64,000 bases of DNA, from positions 1 through 64,000 of IMG/VR virus record IMGVR_UViG_3300042389_000724. One strand, 5' to 3'. Positions 4,968-48,305 of the stretch are shown here, piece after piece. A model generated the notes under the pieces. That model did no database searches and was not told the origin of the DNA. It was given only the letters and a program-made list of their open reading frames with translations. The position numbers were made by a program, and so were the translations under genes. The stretch comes from a virus. How positions within the stretch are numbered: the first letter of the stretch is position 1; every line of letters starts with the position of its first letter.

Positions 4968-7316
4968 ATGGTTCCGATTCTCTCTGCCACTACCCCGTCC
5001 GCTCCCACTGCTGCGAAGTCGATGCTTGCGCGTCTGCTTGCGGCTGAAAACATTTCGGTTGTTCACCAGAACATCCCGACCGCGTTCTTTGACCTGAAGA
5101 CGCGCAGTCTGCACCTCCCGCTGTGGAGCAACGCCAGCGGTGCGCTCTACGATATGCTTGTGGGTCACGAAGTGGCTCACGCGCTGTTCACTCCTGCGAA
5201 CGGTTGGCGGGATGCGATTGATTCGGTTGCTGCCGCCACTGGCTGCGACAAGGACACTGCGAAGCAGTACCTGAACATCGTTGAGGACGCGCGCATTGAG
5301 CGCATGATCCAGGCGAAGTTCCGTGGTCTGAAGTCGGACTTCATCGGTGCGTACAAGACCCTGATGGAGCGCGAGTTCTTTGGCGATATTTCAAATCCCA
5401 ACAGCATGATCTTTGCTGACCGCTTCAACCTCCACTTCAAGTGCGGTGTCCACGCTGGCACGGTGATCCGCTTCAGCGCGGAGGAAGCCGTGTTCGTGAC
5501 CCGTGGCGAGACTGTTGCGACTTGGGCGGATGTCGTGACCCTCGCGCAGGACATGATCACCTACGCGCAGGAACAGGCGGCGAAGGCGCAGCAGCAGCAG
5601 GATCAGCAGTCTGCCGCTGCTCCCTCGGACGAAGGCGACGAAGACGGCGAAGGCGTGGATGCCGAAGGCGAGACTGGTGAGCCGCAGGACGGCGATGCCG
5701 AAGCGAACAACGGCAGCGGCAAGGGTGACGAGTCGCAGTCGGACTCGCAGGATCAGTCGCAGTCGCCTGGCGACAAGCCCTCGGATTCGCAGGAAGACGG
5801 CGAGTCTGCCGCGAAGGGCAACAACGCGAAGCGTGTCGTGAACAACGAGATGCAGAGCGCGATTGCTCCGCAGACGAATCAGAACCTTGAGAAGGCTCTT
5901 GAGCAGTTTGCGAAGACGAGTGACGGCGTGGACGAGATCGTGCGCGTGAGCGCGGACAATATTTCACAGTCGGCGCGTGTGGTGGACTTCAAGACCGTGC
6001 TTTCTGATATGCGTTCGTCTGCCATGAGCCGCTACATGGGTGCGCCTGTCCGCATCGCTGACTACACCACTGCCTCGGTCACGATGGCGACCGCGTTCAA
6101 CCGCCGCAAGGCTGCTGACAACTGGCGGCGCACTAGCGTTGCGAAGACGGGTTCGCTTGATACCCTCCGCATGAACCAGTACAAGTGGAACGAAGACATC
6201 TTCCGCCGCACCACCCGCATCGCTGACGGCAAGAACCACGGCATCGTGATTCTGCTTGACTGGTCGTCCTCCATGAGTCCGATCATGCAGTCCACCATCG
6301 GTCAGTTGTTCATCCTCGCGGACTTCTGCCGCAAGGTCGGCGTTCCGTTCGAAGTGTACGCTTTCTCGGATCAGATGTACACGAACGGCAAGGACTACCT
6401 CAGCGCGACCGCTGTGCAGGAGCGCGAAGCGGCGTGGGATGCCGATCAGAAGCGTCGCAAGAACGCCCAACTCGTCACCCGCGATGTCACGATGCTGAAC
6501 TTCCTGTCCTCGCGCATGAACGGTGCGGAGTACGAAGCCGCGAAGACCTGCCTGTGGAACTGGCGACAGATGGGTACTTGCGACCACCGCTACGCGCTCA
6601 ACGGTACGCCGACCACTGCGGCTCTCGTTGCTGCTGCTGATCTTGTGGAGTCTTTCGTGAAGCGTACCCGTGTGCAGATCGCGCACACTATCGTGCTGAC
6701 TGACGGTGAACCGACCGACTGCATTGACTTCAACATGGATGCCGTCACTGGCACTACCGCCAACAGCCGCGACTACTCCAAGCGTTCGGCTGTCGTGATC
6801 GCTGATCCGCGCACGGGTGCTACCTATGACCTGTCGCGTCTCCGCAAGTACACGAAGGACGAGTACGGCTACCGCAAGTTCGCGGGTTACTTCCAGTTCG
6901 GTTCGGAAGGCATTCCTGAAACCGTTCAGCACCCCCACGCCATGATCGCTGCGGACATCATCCGCCGCCGCACTGGCGCGAAGATCCACTGGATCGGTCT
7001 GACGCTGCACCGCAGGAGCATTGATCCCTCGCACTACGGCATGGTGTGCAAGGACAACAATTGGAAGCGTGACGGTTTCATGCGCGGCGATGTTTGGGGT
7101 TGGGACTCTGCCATCGTGGTGGATGCCGACCGCTTCCTCCGCGAGGCGAACGGCGAAGTGTCCCGCACCGCGCAGCAGTTCCTTGACAAGGCTGAAGAGC
7201 GCATGGACAATGCCCACACGAAGGGCGCACTGGCGAAGGCGTTCATGGAAACGCAGATCGCGCAGGGTTCGCTCCGCACTGTGGCGACCCACATCGGTGA
7301 ATGCCTCGCGGTGTGA
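4968..7316 (+). CDS. Metallopeptidase-like plus VWA-domain protein (CobT-like partner of MoxR AAA+ in T4-like phages)
   Basis: HEVAH and EDARIE motifs, acidic linker, MIDAS DWSSS...GTP...TDG. Start reassigned to ATG 4968. Confidence 0.9.
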   Translation: MVPILSATTPSAPTAAKSMLARLLAAENISVVHQNIPTAFFDLKTRSLHLPLWSNASGALYDMLVGHEVAHALFTPANGWRDAIDSVAAATGCDKDTAKQYLNIVEDARIERMIQAKFRGLKSDFIGAYKTLMEREFFGDISNPNSMIFADRFNLHFKCGVHAGTVIRFSAEEAVFVTRGETVATWADVVTLAQDMITYAQEQAAKAQQQQDQQSAAAPSDEGDEDGEGVDAEGETGEPQDGDAEANNGSGKGDESQSDSQDQSQSPGDKPSDSQEDGESAAKGNNAKRVVNNEMQSAIAPQTNQNLEKALEQFAKTSDGVDEIVRVSADNISQSARVVDFKTVLSDMRSSAMSRYMGAPVRIADYTTASVTMATAFNRRKAADNWRRTSVAKTGSLDTLRMNQYKWNEDIFRRTTRIADGKNHGIVILLDWSSSMSPIMQSTIGQLFILADFCRKVGVPFEVYAFSDQMYTNGKDYLSATAVQEREAAWDADQKRRKNAQLVTRDVTMLNFLSSRMNGAEYEAAKTCLWNWRQMGTCDHRYALNGTPTTAALVAAADLVESFVKRTRVQIAHTIVLTDGEPTDCIDFNMDAVTGTTANSRDYSKRSAVVIADPRTGATYDLSRLRKYTKDEYGYRKFAGYFQFGSEGIPETVQHPHAMIAADIIRRRTGAKIHWIGLTLHRRSIDPSHYGMVCKDNNWKRDGFMRGDVWGWDSAIVVDADRFLREANGEVSRTAQQFLDKAEERMDNAHTKGALAKAFMETQIAQGSLRTVATHIGECLAV

Positions 7317-7404
7317 AAAACTCCCTATTTTCTGCAAATGGTGTAAATCGTTTAGTTACAAGAGGTTACAACGGATATTATCGGACGCGCTGTCCCCGTT
7401 GGGA

Positions 7405-7433
7405 TTGAAAAAAGCCTAGGAATACAGTACAAT
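7405..7433 (+). promoter_or_regulatory. sigma70-like early promoter (leaderless)
   Basis: TTGAAA-N17-TACAAT with ATG at 7441. Confidence 0.7.
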
Positions 7434-14347: not shown

Positions 14348-14484
14348 ATGGTTGATCCTTTTGAATATTGCGTGTGAGATTTCATCAGCAAATAGTAGTG
14401 AAGTTATTTATGATGCTTTATGTTTTGCTGCTACTTTACATTGAAATGAAATACTCGTTCTGCCGCTTTTGCCCCCTCTCCCTC

Positions 14485-23166: not shown

Positions 23167-23943
23167 ATGACACACAAGCACAGCGCAGGATCGCCGTGTG
23201 AATGTGAAAAACTAAAGAATGCCGAGCGGGAAGAACTCCGCGAGGGTCTTAAGAAATGTGTTGAAGCCCGTGAAGCCGAACGGCGCGAGCGGGAAGCCGA
23301 AAACGCAAAGCGGGCAGACGAAGCCGAGGCTGAAGTCAAAAGCCTGAAGAAAAAACTTATTGCATTCCAACTGGCTACCGCTATTGGTGGTGCAGTGATC
23401 GGGCAGGAAATGGTGAACAAGATCACCGCGAAGATCGACTCTGCCAAAGCAATGCAGGAGAAAATCACGGGCGAGGCTGCACCATCGGATCAGTCTGCTG
23501 CTCCTGCTGGCAACACCACGAAGATTGGTTGGGGTGGCGGGTGGAAGCCGTACATTCCAAAGAACAAATTCATAACAAATCAAGATTCAGGCAGCAACGG
23601 AGACATCTCTGGTGTCTGGGCAGGCAGCAGAATTTCGGTGACAGGAGAGCAGCCCTCTCCCATTGTTGAAGACTGGAGTCCGTACACCACAGACACTAAC
23701 ATCAGCAAGCCAGGCTTGCAGCAGATCACCTCTGCCGAAGTACAAGAAGTTTCCAAAAATCTCATTGCGGCGTTGAGCGAACCTCTTCCGCCGCTGTACA
23801 CGATTTCGTTTGGTGCGCCTCTGCTTCCGTTTGATGACAGCAGCGGGTTTGCGTACTCATATGCAGGAGCGGTTGTTCCCTCTCCTGCTCCCATCACTCT
23901 TTTTGCCATGAGCGGACTCATTCACAATCGCAGACGGGCATAA
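23167..23943 (+). CDS. Coiled-coil/TM protein with PEP-CTERM-like tail
   Basis: N-terminal coiled coil, hydrophobic LIAFQLATAIGGAVIG, C-terminus VVPSPAPITLFAMSGLIHNRRRA. Confidence 0.75.
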   Translation: MTHKHSAGSPCECEKLKNAEREELREGLKKCVEAREAERREREAENAKRADEAEAEVKSLKKKLIAFQLATAIGGAVIGQEMVNKITAKIDSAKAMQEKITGEAAPSDQSAAPAGNTTKIGWGGGWKPYIPKNKFITNQDSGSNGDISGVWAGSRISVTGEQPSPIVEDWSPYTTDTNISKPGLQQITSAEVQEVSKNLIAALSEPLPPLYTISFGAPLLPFDDSSGFAYSYAGAVVPSPAPITLFAMSGLIHNRRRA

Positions 23944-23952
23944 GGAGATTAG

Positions 23953-24585
23953 ATGCAAAAGCAAATACTTTCGGCTATCGGTGCAGCAACTGTCAGCACA
24001 TCCGCTATGGGCGGATTGGTTGATGGAAGTTTTGAGAACAACGATGTGTATTACGGATACGGATTTGTACAGGGTGGAATCGACACTTCATGGCTCACTA
24101 CTGCTCCCGACAATCTCATTGAGATTTGGGGGCAATACATGGAGATCAGCGCATATAGTGGAACTCGTTGCGCGGAACTGAATGCAAACTACGCTTCCAC
24201 TCTGTATCAGACGGTGGCTCCCATCAGTGCTGGTTCTTCAGTGAACTGGCACTTTGCCCACCACGGACGGTACGGCACAGACACAATGCGTCTGACCATT
24301 ACTGATCTTGGTGCGGATCAGGATTGGGGCGGTGGGGATGACACCACCGTGTACACTAGTGAATTTTCCGCAGACAATACTGCATGGGTATTGAACTACG
24401 GTAGCGTCACATCTTTGGGAAATTCCATGCGATTTGCGTTTGAGGCTGTGAGCGCAGTGGGTGGCAACACGCAGGGCAATCTGATTGACTGGTGCGATTT
24501 CGGCGTGGGTGTTGTGCCAGCACCTGGCGCAATTTCTATTTTGATGTTTGCTGGTATTTTGGGTTGCATTAGACGCAGAGGGTGA
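23953..24585 (+). CDS. Secreted PEP-CTERM-like (VPAPG) protein with a CBM/DUF642-like beta-sandwich
   Basis: Signal peptide ending SAMG, DGSFE...IEIW...AELNA...LYQ...GNLID, C-terminus VVPAPGAISILMFAGILGCIRRRG. Confidence 0.85.
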   Translation: MQKQILSAIGAATVSTSAMGGLVDGSFENNDVYYGYGFVQGGIDTSWLTTAPDNLIEIWGQYMEISAYSGTRCAELNANYASTLYQTVAPISAGSSVNWHFAHHGRYGTDTMRLTITDLGADQDWGGGDDTTVYTSEFSADNTAWVLNYGSVTSLGNSMRFAFEAVSAVGGNTQGNLIDWCDFGVGVVPAPGAISILMFAGILGCIRRRG

Positions 24586-24665: not shown

Positions 24666-25070
24666 ATGGCGCAGGAAAAGGTGACACTTATCGCAAGGTT
24701 GATCAGGTGGCTTGGGAACGCAATTGGAACGCTATTTTCGGGAAAGCCGAAACTGAACGAAAAGCCACCAAGCGGAAACCGCGCACTCGGACGGTTAAGC
24801 GACCGCGAAATCCATAAGCAGATGCTCCTACGCATCATGCGCGATCTGAGCGAGGAGTACTACGCTTCAGGATGGATGCAGGGTCTTGAGCATTACCTGT
24901 GGAATCTGGCTCTCCGTCAGAACACCATTGAAGGACAGATGCTCCTGCGGTGCGCGGAGATCAGCGGCGGGTGGTGGATCTGGGACGACAAGGCAGGTGG
25001 TCATGTTTTCGTTCCGCTTGCAGCATGGCAGAGTGCGTATCGTGAAGATGAAATGCTTGAGCCAGCATAA
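24666..25070 (+). CDS. Hypothetical phage protein (MxDLSEEYYxxGWMxGLExxLW)
   Basis: Coherent ORF; start 24666 or 24636. Confidence 0.72.
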   Translation: MAQEKVTLIARLIRWLGNAIGTLFSGKPKLNEKPPSGNRALGRLSDREIHKQMLLRIMRDLSEEYYASGWMQGLEHYLWNLALRQNTIEGQMLLRCAEISGGWWIWDDKAGGHVFVPLAAWQSAYREDEMLEPA

Positions 25071-25074
25071 ATAC

Positions 25075-25415
25075 AAACGGTATTGTTGATAGCGGATCGA
25101 CACACATTCAGCACGGGGGTTCGAATCCCCCCGACTCCATTCAAAGATGCGCGAACGCGAAGTGACTGCATCACTCGCCTCTTCCCGCAGTCAAGTCCTC
25201 CAGTTGCAGTGGGGGCAAATATACGGGGTCGATACGGAATCGACTGGTGTGCAGTAGAGAAGCAGGAGATACCCGAGGGGTGCATCAGACCCTCGTTAAA
25301 AACACTGGCGCAACTACAAACGCCAACAGAATGGCGATGGCGGCTTGAAGCCGTGGGGACTGATCCTCCCGCATCTGAACGGATCAAGGGGAGCCGCAAG
25401 GCTCCCTTTTCTTTT
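25075..25415 (+). ncRNA. ssrA: Circularly permuted (two-piece) tmRNA
   Basis: T arm and 3' acceptor strand (GGGGG-TTCGAAT-CCCCC-CGACTCC-A, 25115-25139) lie upstream of the 5' end GGGGTCGATACGGAATCGAC (25225); G3:U70; pk1 CGAGGG/CCCTCG; tag ANRMAMAA* 25322-25348; terminator 25387-25415. Confidence 0.9.
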
Positions 25416-25444
25416 GGTCTAAATAGGGTACTGGAGGAAAAGGT

Positions 25445-26458
25445 ATGTCTGATGGATACGATGTATATTCAAAGGTAGCGCGGATGGGTTTTACGGGAGT
25501 GAACACCCCCTATAATCTATTGGATAGCGGAAATAGTCCAATTGCAAACAAATATTGGTATCATCCCGACACCATCCGATCCAAAAGCAACACAAAAGGA
25601 CTACTCGCTGTAAACACATCAGCAAATGGAATATCATTCAATGCTCACTGTTACGGTGAAGTCATGGCAGGTGTTACGAATTATTTCATGTTGAGTGAAA
25701 ACATTCAGAGTGGTCTAACATCAGACACAGCAGGATCTTCTGGTTCTCAGCCGTGGATTCTCTTTTCTTCAAATTCTGGTGGCGCAGGCTTCGCTCCTTC
25801 TGGCTCGGCGCGATGGTCGCCAATCAGAATGCCTGATGGCAGCACCAACGGAGTTCGTATGTGGGGTGTGTCTGGTGCAACAAATTCTGGAATTTTTCAA
25901 CCGATTCGTCAGCAAAACATTTTCCCGAAAGGCAAGGTGTACACCGCGTCTGTGTGGGCGTGTGGTGATTCTGGAGGCGGTGTATACACATCCACTCCCA
26001 AGTTTAGGTTTTCCTACTTTACCGATCCCCCGAACAGTGTGAGTGTATTTTCAGAAGAATTCACTCTATCGGAAACACCTACTAGGTACTCGTACACTTT
26101 CGTTTCCAATACTAATCCTGGAGTATCATATGATAATATTGCTCTATGTGCTTCGTATAATGTGGGAGGAGCAACCACACAATTGGTATTTTGGGGAGCG
26201 CAATTGTGCGATGGGAACACGGAGAACAATTACATTCCAACCAATACTGAATGGAACGGCAGACTGACTTCTATTGGAGTTGCAACGGCTGGAATCGCTG
26301 GACAAGCAGCGGCAGGAAGTCGCTATATTGAATCGTTCCCAGTGGTTGTTGGTGGAAGCAGCAGTGTTCTGCTGAACAGTGATATTATTACTGTCTCTGC
26401 AAATACTAGTGCGTCCTATACGACTCCTACAACCCTTTCAATCTACGGACTTTACTAA
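25445..26458 (+). CDS. Virion protein with an inserted carbohydrate-binding-like domain
   Basis: CTAAATA at 25419; TNY...SE, PDG, YTASVW, RYSYTF, WGAQL, YIPT pattern of phage head/tail CBM-like modules. Confidence 0.75.
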   Translation: MSDGYDVYSKVARMGFTGVNTPYNLLDSGNSPIANKYWYHPDTIRSKSNTKGLLAVNTSANGISFNAHCYGEVMAGVTNYFMLSENIQSGLTSDTAGSSGSQPWILFSSNSGGAGFAPSGSARWSPIRMPDGSTNGVRMWGVSGATNSGIFQPIRQQNIFPKGKVYTASVWACGDSGGGVYTSTPKFRFSYFTDPPNSVSVFSEEFTLSETPTRYSYTFVSNTNPGVSYDNIALCASYNVGGATTQLVFWGAQLCDGNTENNYIPTNTEWNGRLTSIGVATAGIAGQAAAGSRYIESFPVVVGGSSSVLLNSDIITVSANTSASYTTPTTLSIYGLY

Positions 26459-31856: not shown

Positions 31857-33160
31857 TATACATTTAGACCAAGTGTCAGGCTTGGTTTGTTGTCTGCTAT
31901 TGATACTTCTGTGTCCATGCCTATTCTATTTTCCGAAACTGTTGCTTCGTTGAAGAAAATTCTGATTCTGTTCTTGTGTCTAGTCTCATCAGACACCATT
32001 GCAACAGTGAAATCTTTTGAATTGTTTGTTTGTGATTGAGTGTAGTATCTGATTTTTAGTTTCTGATCTGGTACAAGGCTCATGCTTTCCGTTTTGGTTT
32101 CTTCAGATGGATTTTCTATCTCTAAAAGATACGATCCTTGCGGAATAGTTGATTCTGTTGCTATCTCTACTGTTGTATTGTGTGTCGATATTCCATTCGG
32201 CAAGGTAAATCCACTCAACAGCATGGAATCAGCAGACGGTTTGTCAACAACTGTGCATATTTTTGATCCCAACGAAACAGAATTGTTGGTATCTGGATCA
32301 AAAATCTCTAGTGTGGAACCAACAGACATAGAAAATTGACATGAGTAGAACTGTTTTAGTCTGTTTTCGTCAGTTTCTTGTTGTGTTAGTAAAACATACT
32401 GACCATTTTCTGTCAGTTGTACATACACACCCTCGGTCTTGATGCTGTTTGTGTCTTCTGATCGAAGAAACTTGCAGTTCTTTAGTACTTCGTCTCCTAA
32501 AAACCCTTCATTTTCTTCCCAAGAGTGGAATGTGGCATACCCGTGTTCGGTTTCTCTGCTCTTGATGATCAGTGCTAGTTGATTATTCCCTGATGTTTGC
32601 CATAAATGACACTGATGTGTGATGTCAAATTCTATTTGACCATCAACAACAGAAGAAAACGACGAACTAGCATCCAATTCGTTTTCGAATACCCCACCTT
32701 GAATCTCCCAGATATCATCTGATGCTTCTGATGGTTTATTCCAAGACACTGATGGGTCTATTCCCGATCCCAATCTCACAAGTTTTGCTTCAAACTCGGT
32801 TGTCGATGGTGTATCTGTGGACAGAATCAGGGATGCCCTGTCAATTCCATATGAAGCGGTTCCAATTTCTTTTTGAATCGCTTCTAGTGGATAGAAAAAC
32901 AGAACAGAGCGATATGTGACATCACCACTGATTCCTGCTTTAAGATATTGTCTGTGTCTAATCAGAAGTTCGCCGTCTTCTCCCTCTGGTAAGAGGGTGA
33001 ACTTCTTTGATATTGAGTCGAATACTGTTCTTGTTGATAGTGGAGAATTGGTTATGAATGTATCATTCTCGTCTATCCCACCAAAAATCTTCACCTCTAC
33101 AGGTGTGTACTCGGATCTATGTGAGCCGCTTATGTTGTTTCGATATCGTTGAGACAGCAT
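31853..33160 (-). CDS. DNRLRE/CBM96-like domain protein (virion accessory)
   Basis: DTFI...RSVLFF...ASLIL...SWN...W...GG...FDIT...W...N..L.IK...FHS.E, with a final KPSL after a long insertion. Confidence 0.6.
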   Translation of the reverse strand: MLSQRYRNNISGSHRSEYTPVEVKIFGGIDENDTFITNSPLSTRTVFDSISKKFTLLPEGEDGELLIRHRQYLKAGISGDVTYRSVLFFYPLEAIQKEIGTASYGIDRASLILSTDTPSTTEFEAKLVRLGSGIDPSVSWNKPSEASDDIWEIQGGVFENELDASSSFSSVVDGQIEFDITHQCHLWQTSGNNQLALIIKSRETEHGYATFHSWEENEGFLGDEVLKNCKFLRSEDTNSIKTEGVYVQLTENGQYVLLTQQETDENRLKQFYSCQFSMSVGSTLEIFDPDTNNSVSLGSKICTVVDKPSADSMLLSGFTLPNGISTHNTTVEIATESTIPQGSYLLEIENPSEETKTESMSLVPDQKLKIRYYTQSQTNNSKDFTVAMVSDETRHKNRIRIFFNEATVSENRIGMDTEVSIADNKPSLTLGLNVY

Positions 33161-47637: not shown

Positions 47638-48305
47638 TTTCCTCCGACAGCAACATCACCGAACTAAAGGATATCTCCCTTATGGTTGGAGAGATATTTG
47701 GTGTTTTTATTGTTGGGCTGGGTTTGGGGGCTTGGGGAATAATCAAGAAGCAAAACCTGAATTGGTCTTCTAGGTGGAAGGATGTAACGGAAAAGAGGTT
47801 TGTTCAGAAGCACACACAGATACATGAACTACTCACGGAGTTGAGGCTTACCTCTAGGTGCTGTCGGTGCTTGATTTTTCAATTTCACAACGGCGGGTCT
47901 TTTGCCGATGGTAGTTCAATCAAGAGGTTTTCCGTAACCCACGAGTCGTGTGCCTCTGGGGTGGGAACTGTTATGCTTGACTCTCAAGATGTGTTACTGA
48001 CAAGGTATGCTGAATTGATACGAGTTTTAGAAGAACAACCTTCAAAAATTCTTTCGATTCGTGATGTTCCTTCTTCTGGATTCCGTTCTGGACTTGAGAT
48101 AAATAGCGTAGATTACTTTACTCTGCTTCCTCTTAGATGTTCCGATGGTATTTCTCCTCTTGGTTTTGTGTGTTGTCAGTGGTGTTCTGGAGATGCACTA
48201 GATGATATTGAGAAAGAGGGTATTTCTCAAACGACTTTAGAGCAAGTGATCTCAGAGGCAGTAGAAAACATCAACGCACACATAAACTTCAAAAAGAACA
48301 AATAA
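47634..48305 (+). CDS. Single-TM protein with a GAF-like domain (holin candidate)
   Basis: TM helix at about aa 16-35; IFQFHNGG...FSVTHE...LGFV pattern. Confidence 0.6.
   Translation: MISSDSNITELKDISLMVGEIFGVFIVGLGLGAWGIIKKQNLNWSSRWKDVTEKRFVQKHTQIHELLTELRLTSRCCRCLIFQFHNGGSFADGSSIKRFSVTHESCASGVGTVMLDSQDVLLTRYAELIRVLEEQPSKILSIRDVPSSGFRSGLEINSVDYFTLLPLRCSDGISPLGFVCCQWCSGDALDDIEKEGISQTTLEQVISEAVENINAHINFKKNK

Follow-up and report, generated by a model that had tools for sequence, protein, structure and literature searches.

Sequence evidence for a circularly permuted, two-piece tmRNA gene and its sub-family in uncultured freshwater T4-like phages

The stretch of DNA analyzed here (64,000 nucleotides, nt; hereafter, the window) comes from an IMG/VR virus record of 95 kb with a CheckV completeness of ~53%. 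Judged from its sequence, the locus at 25066-25415 of the window is a real circularly permuted, two-piece tmRNA gene of the phage, and all of its elements lie on the plus strand. By re-reading the sequence, we confirmed every element coordinate given for this locus in the original prediction. The locus opens with a late-promoter-like box of the T4 type, CATAAATA (25066-25073), placed 5 nt 5' of where pairing in the acceptor piece begins. This piece (61 nt, 25079-25139, delimited by Rfam alignment) carries the 3' strands of helix 2 (25079-25084, 25103-25106, and 25109-25111, likewise from the Rfam alignment), the T arm (GGGGG/TTCGAAT/CCCCC, 25115-25131), the acceptor 3' strand (CGACTCC, 25132-25138), and the discriminator base A73 (25139); the next letters are TTC, hence CCA is not encoded. 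An intervening sequence of 85 nt (25140-25224), predicted to be removed on maturation, separates it from the coding piece (25225-25415), which extends from the acceptor 5' strand through the terminator. The acceptor 5' strand (GGGGTCG, 25225-25231) forms seven pairs with CGACTCC, and G25227:T25136 constitutes the G3:U70 pair of this 7-bp acceptor stem. Further downstream lie the 5' strands of helix 2 (25244-25251 and 25268-25273, from the Rfam alignment) and pseudoknot pk1 (25274-25312), with stem 1 at 25274-25279/25290-25295 and stem 2 at 25281-25288/25305-25312. The resume codon GCC at 25322, 9 nt past pk1 stem 2, begins a tag frame (25322-25348; GCC AAC AGA ATG GCG ATG GCG GCT TGA) that encodes ANRMAMAA followed by the stop codon TGA, which sits in the loop of helix 5 (25340-25354). 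Pseudoknot pk2 (25355-25385; stems at 25355-25358/25367-25370 and 25362-25366/25381-25385) and an intrinsic terminator with its T run (25386-25409) complete the locus.

ARAGORN and Rfam had been put forward as checks together with the original prediction, and we ran both. ARAGORN called a permuted gene (tmRNA*) at 25047-25439 with the tag ANRMAMAA*. Rfam matched the locus to tmRNA_permuted (RF04321) with 70.9 bits (gathering score, 47; E = 1e-11), and the alignment spanned model positions 1-213; this score is low for RF04321, on which genuine beta genes reach 117-176 bits and cultured phage genes 91-113 bits. The window gene scored below the gathering score of each lineage-specific model, namely alpha_tmRNA (RF01849; 24.7 versus 50 bits, tRNA-like domain only), beta_tmRNA (RF01850; 48.3 versus 84 bits, E = 7e-14, end-to-end alignment), and cyano_tmRNA (RF01851; 42.9 versus 70 bits). 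Its relatives obtained 36-49 bits on beta_tmRNA, and the one-piece tmRNA model (RF00023) matched the window gene partially, with 18 bits. By Rfam thresholds, the family falls in none of the three curated permuted lineages (alpha, beta, and cyano), and permuted tmRNAs are thus not fully covered by the three lineage-specific models. A minimum-free-energy fold of the whole precursor was uninformative, because neither pseudoknots nor a two-piece topology can be represented in it.

To delimit the family, we used two mutually independent pattern scans of IMG/VR, one built around the T arm and acceptor strand and the other around the tag end and pk2 loop, which returned 43 and 118 contigs, respectively. 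The family is present in at least 118 IMG/VR contigs, its permuted members all have the layout seen in the window, and near-identical DNA was detected in 14 metagenome studies of lakes or fresh water. A blastn comparison of three family members with 50,697 phage records found nothing except the T arm. Among 185,579 species genomes, the exact permuted pattern had no match, and a 27-nt pattern for the tRNA-like domain had a single one, on the phage contig L060 described below.

In 73 loci, both pieces could be paired automatically, and G3:U70 and A73 were invariant in all 73. Across these loci, the acceptor stem exists in compensatory variants (i.e., GGGGTCG/CGACTCC, GGGGCTG/CGGCTCC, GGGGATG/CATCTCC, and GGGGCCG/CGGCTCC), and the T stem covaries as well. 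Covariation across the family extends to the acceptor stem, T arm, helix 2, both pseudoknots, and helix 5. In a 50-sequence alignment that included both pseudoknots, 88.9% of cells were paired under the proposed structure versus 79.7% in shuffles, and 35 pairs were changed on both sides versus 23.6 expected, with both-side changes found in helix 2, the T arm, pk1, and helix 5. The covariation score was 0.301, compared to 0.141 for shuffled alignments, a value matched by none of 500 shuffles; partners slid out of register gave 0.06-0.11. The best-supported helices were those of helix 2, through whose two parts the acceptor and coding pieces are joined: the outer part was 100% paired with five of six pairs altered on both sides, and the inner part was 96.5% paired with all seven of its pairs so altered. 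ARAGORN, RF04321, and the family covariation all agree on the phage-encoded, permuted two-piece tmRNA that had been predicted.

The tag frame of a tmRNA has no start codon, resumes at GCN or GGN shortly after pk1, and ends with Ala-Ala and a stop codon. In each of the 118 readable loci, the tag has 8 codons, neither more nor fewer, and its distance from the 5' end is constant; together, these loci hold 38 DNA variants that specify 17 peptides. The pattern A-[NA]-x-[ML]-[AR]-[MRIL]-A-A is uniform across the family, and synonymous codons are used for Leu (TTA/CTG/CTA/TTG), Arg (CGC/CGT/CGG), and Ala. This constant length combined with synonymous variation indicates that the tag frame is real and has been selected as a coding frame. 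Consistently, the predicted tag ANRMAMAA is the one that ARAGORN reports, and its 8-codon frame is conserved across the family. A longer tag starting at the in-frame GCA at 25310 (ATTNANRMAMAA) was discarded, as relatives do not keep this GCA in frame and it falls within pk1 stem 2; the longer ARAGORN tags for loci L013 and L014 proved to be the same 8-codon frame started further upstream. The prediction had also described the tag as unusually short. It is indeed below the range of the cultured relatives (9-21 residues) and of beta-type genes (10-14 residues), but the commonest tag length in the tmRNA database is 10 aa and the shortest tags comprise only 2 aa (PMC11915505); we would call the 8-residue tag mildly short, not exceptional. 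The family tag is devoid of the middle part that binds SspB in E. coli, and Ala-Ala is preceded by Met or Ile rather than by the Leu of E. coli. By analogy, the Ala-Ala end represents a putative ClpXP degradation signal. The tag sequences were not found in the literature that we searched.

The spacer between the two pieces ranges from 6 to 222 nt across the family through clean deletions between conserved flanks, as is expected for a segment that is cut out. In the window, the spacer folds into two hairpins (fold z-score, -2.0), the second of which (CCUCC...GGGGG) is kept in long-spacer members. The long-spacer members share a CUGCAA-loop hairpin and a CCUCN...NGGGG hairpin (approximately 25195-25217 in the window), and a third hairpin (CCCGAAG-UCCUAGG-CUUCGGG) is frequent among them; spacers of 6-31 nt have none of the three, and a search of Rfam gave no match for the spacer hairpins. 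Loci L018 (5268-5489) and L043 have a 222-nt spacer in which, reading by eye, we noted a 67-codon open frame (ATG GAA AGC ... TTC TAA) preceded by a ribosome-binding-like site, AAAGGAA; this frame may be a nested small protein gene.

CCA is encoded in none of the 73 resolved family loci and is likewise absent from all ten tRNA genes of the phage. RNA-library contigs match portions of the tmRNA locus, the spacer among them, but contigs cannot show RNA ends, and DNA carry-over is possible. Accordingly qualified are the X15 contigs, which stop at 25139 and 25205 in libraries where DNA may be present and contigs break wherever variants branch, and an X16 contig from a close relative, which spans 25112-25282 and for which DNA may again be present. 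Gaps in the X15 coverage were given no weight, and we set aside an X2 contig joining 25139 to 25316, as it extends over 30 nt on one side only and is probably another organism's.

Of the late expression that had been proposed, the late-type promoter box found support in the family: 52 of 71 members have TA[AG]ATA at 70-72 nt upstream of A73, i.e., a late-type TAAATA box at a fixed upstream distance. The window contains eight copies of ATAAATA versus 3.85 expected by chance. Six of these, at 14405 (minus strand), 16661, 23107, 29438, 39653 (minus strand), and 41426, are within ~60 nt upstream of the start of an ORF on the same strand; the remaining two are the box at the tmRNA gene and a copy at 48099 that has no such placement. 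No sigma-70-type site was found at the tmRNA locus of the window. These features suggest T4-type late transcription that would end at the terminator. Promoter activity of the CATAAATA box is predicted from its sequence, and going by this motif, expression may be late. In a subgroup (L009 and L018), a TTGAC-N17-TACAAT site replaces the TAAATA box. Directly downstream of the L009 tmRNA, at 7227-7431 on the minus strand, a manA RNA motif (RF01745) was detected with 52.6 bits, below its gathering score of 55.2. In four other members (L007, L028, L073, and L092), the place of the TAAATA box is taken by a tRNA-like 3' half (e.g., GAGGTGCAAGTCCTCCACTACGC) that ends 3-4 nt before the acceptor piece; ARAGORN did not call it, and it may belong to an unrecognized tRNA cotranscribed with the tmRNA.

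The assignment of the genome to a T4-like phage is corroborated by its baseplate genes (gp5, gp6, gp7, and others). Its gp6 homologue is nearest to Kyanoviridae and shares 35-38% identity with its counterparts in phages Melnitz, Mosig, HTVC008M, S-CAM1, and S-CAM3. The gene order around the tmRNA is common to at least 10 independent contigs. At about 32 kb (31900-32100), GC content drops from ~0.51 to 0.40 between the tRNA/accessory region and the structural module; a chimeric contig was considered for this reason and dismissed, as at least 10 contigs preserve the same arrangement of genes across this point. Neither an SmpB gene nor a CCA-adding enzyme was found in the 95-kb record, which is ~53% complete. 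Just downstream of the tmRNA, the ORF at 25445-26458 matched NF048003, a phage/GTA head-spike-fibre domain, with 31.7 bits, under the cutoff of 36. Two ORFs upstream of the locus (23167-23943 and 23953-24585) end in VVPSPAP-hydrophobic-RRRA and VVPAPGA-hydrophobic-RRRG, which by their look are PEP-CTERM-type sorting tails; NCBIfam gave no match to either at E ≤ 1.

Searches of the flanking ORFs against NCBIfam and PHROGs returned nothing that names a host. The probable Planctomycetota host of the original prediction gained no support from any analysis, and that phylum has almost exclusively the standard tmRNA form (1914 standard versus 1 permuted; PMC11915505, Table S2). The only taxonomic hint to a host comes from L060 (JBEGUW010000083.1), a contig of 9.5 kb bearing 16 tRNAs plus a tmRNA of the family (tag, AAPMAMAA) in a river Bacteroidota metagenome-assembled genome (MAG) that serves as a GTDB species representative, "Bacteroidota bacterium." Synteny with L026 and L046, both viral, makes it very likely that L060 derives from a phage and entered this MAG through binning. 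Sporadic "Permuted (beta)" entries in the tmRNA database that stem from MAGs of many phyla could likewise be phage contigs, L060 being one such case of binning.

Phages were missing from the known two-piece cases listed in the original prediction, an omission that needs correcting: Buchholz et al. (2022; PMC9004378) reported two-piece forms for 53 of 133 unique phage tmRNAs, 50 of the 53 being marine or aquatic, and described that of Melnitz. All five of the nearest cultured relatives proved positive, i.e., Methylophilales phage Melnitz, Pelagibacter phages Mosig and HTVC008M, and Synechococcus phages S-CAM1 and S-CAM3, all Kyanoviridae with the same permuted order and a match to RF04321. As in the family, the tmRNA gene of these phages often lies beside tRNA genes, and dependence on host SmpB is presumed. 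They differ from it in several respects. S-CAM1 and S-CAM3 obtain 127-128 bits on cyano_tmRNA, on which the window family is below threshold, and Melnitz, HTVC008M, and Mosig obtain 107, 84, and 68 bits, respectively, on alpha_tmRNA, compared to 24.7 for the window gene. Their tags comprise 9-21 residues rather than 8, and Melnitz, Mosig, and HTVC008M encode CCA, which the family does not. Moreover, the Melnitz gene is reported to have an early promoter and a glutamine riboswitch just downstream (PMC9004378), whereas the window gene follows a late-type box and lacks a riboswitch. The family is a distinct, undescribed sub-family of the already published phage two-piece tmRNAs and no new kind; it is marked by scores below the alpha, beta, and cyano thresholds and by a uniform 8-residue tag combined with a late-type promoter.

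With beta-type two-piece tmRNAs (RF01850), the family shares the piece order, pk1, a tag starting with AN and ending with AA, and pk2 with the terminal hairpin. For calibration, we collected 72 beta-type genes from metagenomes, several of them on contigs of >300 kb. The five that we scored reached 95-305 bits on RF01850, versus 48.3 for the window gene, in which most of the pairs that the beta model expects in helix 2 are mismatches. Tags in the 72 genes comprise 10-14 residues, the commonest being ANDEQFAIAA and ANDERFALAA, with a few ANDNHYAMAA; those genes that were read encode CCA, unlike the family, and spacers measure 20-50 nt, a range fixed by the search pattern. Two metagenome contigs with tRNA genes (L160 and L221) carry phage-like permuted tmRNAs with the tag ANEDVYSYALAA that just pass the beta model (95.5 bits); their helix 2 end (ATATTCGTTGA / GGGAGATATCCGG) resembles that of the family (GATATCGTTGA / GGGAGATATCCGAG), overall profile similarity is low, and we regard them as an origin lead only. 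One-piece SsrA (RF00023) has in common with the family G3:U70, A73, a pk1 before the resume codon, a stop codon in the helix 5 loop, and the Ala-Ala end. It differs in that the order of the family is permuted, with two pseudoknots only and the break where pk3 and pk4 would sit. In several one-piece phage tmRNAs, the 22-nt T arm plus acceptor strand is identical to that of the family. One such gene, L008:10484-10824, has the tag ANKQTRRYALAA, was missed by ARAGORN, and is otherwise unrelated to the permuted family.

We consider it highly probable, from sequence comparison, that the locus is a working two-piece tmRNA gene of an uncultured freshwater T4-like phage. That it should instead be a non-functional relic, an assembly of a rearranged one-piece gene, or a protein-coding stretch strikes us as scarcely credible. 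Mechanically called ORFs do overlap it (25083-25478, plus strand, 131 aa; 25001-25399, minus strand, 132 aa), but spacer indels of 6-222 nt would break any ORF, and the compensatory changes across its helices speak against a relic. An assembly rearrangement, for which the original prediction had advised looking, is countered by the permuted order recurring in at least 118 viral contigs as well as in independent lake assemblies, a recurrence that weighs against a relic too, and by the failure to find a one-piece version of the tag and pk2 module among the loci searched. Because the same order also holds in error-free contigs of an independent lake metagenome (X2) that cross both junctions (25044-25205 and 25204-25366), an assembly artefact is excluded. 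A different reading accepts the gene as functional but holds that it mainly alters the outcome of rescue: the phage tmRNA would outcompete that of the host, and its minimal 8-residue tag would replace the host's, such that rescued proteins are degraded faster, slower, or by another protease (e.g., for amino-acid recycling or to spare phage proteins). Selective tagging has been proposed as a possible role of phage tmRNAs (Buchholz et al., 2022; PMC9004378), the family tag lacks the adaptor-binding middle part of classical tags, and its length and pattern are uniform, unlike those of the cultured relatives (9-21 residues) and beta-type genes (10-14). Yet the usual AN start and Ala-Ala end are retained, and the AMAA ending also occurs in bacterial beta-type genes (ANDNHYAMAA); we judge this reading unlikely.

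As for the origin of the family, the original prediction had raised an independent permutation. The three curated lineages do not accommodate the family, but we did not find a one-piece sister form either. Specifically, when we looked for a one-piece gene sharing the tag and pk2 module, none of the 46 loci unresolved by our first script (approximately half of them permuted according to ARAGORN and the rest without a call, with several cut at a contig end) gave a one-piece call. A fourth permuted lineage, restricted to freshwater T4-like phages with one-piece hosts and arising from a permutation event of its own, with a phage-tuned 8-residue tag, is a tentative proposal that we hold to be rather doubtful; if true, tmRNA permutation would be recurrent in phages, beyond the three bacterial clades. 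The family may also be a strongly diverged offshoot of the beta two-piece lineage captured from a betaproteobacterial host, a quite conceivable origin, short of being probable, that is compatible with a working rescue gene and would require no permutation event of its own. Of the three lineage models, beta_tmRNA gives the best score, with an end-to-end alignment (48.3 bits, E = 7e-14), and the layout of pk1, an AN-starting tag, pk2, and a terminal hairpin is shared. We also compared the families by nhmmer sequence profiles. The profile of the family coding piece, which scores 112-163 bits within the family, does best on beta genes (24.6 bits), followed by one-piece phage genes (18.8 bits) and cyano genes (2.2 bits), with no match to alpha genes. 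This relation is not reciprocal, however, as the beta profile favors alpha phage genes (41.6 bits) and cyano phage genes (30.0 bits) over the window family (28.3 bits). Moreover, 48.3 bits is far under the threshold of 84 and the 95-305 bits of genuine beta genes, which have CCA and tags of 10-14 residues, and the helix 2 pairs are mostly mismatched.

How a working two-piece rescue gene of this kind would operate can be outlined by analogy with established tmRNA biology, from which the following steps are drawn. A precursor of ~335 nt would be transcribed from the late-type promoter (25066-25073) to the terminator (25386-25415). Host RNase P would cleave 5' of G25225, the 3' end would be trimmed after A25139 and receive CCA from host enzymes, as the ten CCA-less tRNAs of the phage presumably do, and the spacer would be discarded. 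The resulting pieces of ~61 nt (before CCA addition) and ~190 nt would be held together via the acceptor stem and helix 2. Host alanyl-tRNA synthetase would charge the molecule with alanine through G3:U70 and A73, and host SmpB would deliver it to ribosomes stalled on broken mRNAs; charging and SmpB could be supplied by the host or by the missing half of the phage genome. Translation would then resume at GCC 25322, thereby adding A-ANRMAMAA with the putative Ala-Ala degradation signal at its end. The probable benefit to the phage, and the simplest role of the gene, is that rescue is kept running late in infection, when the host no longer transcribes and mRNAs break often, by the same logic as that of a phage carrying its own tRNAs.

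Phage tmRNAs are known yet, to our knowledge, little studied, and we know of no demonstration of their benefit to the phage. With more than 100 natural variants that combine a fixed 8-residue tag, two pseudoknots, and a spacer of 6-222 nt, the family described here represents a convenient natural experiment for addressing what a two-piece tmRNA minimally requires, how it is processed, and whether phages alter the fate of rescued proteins.
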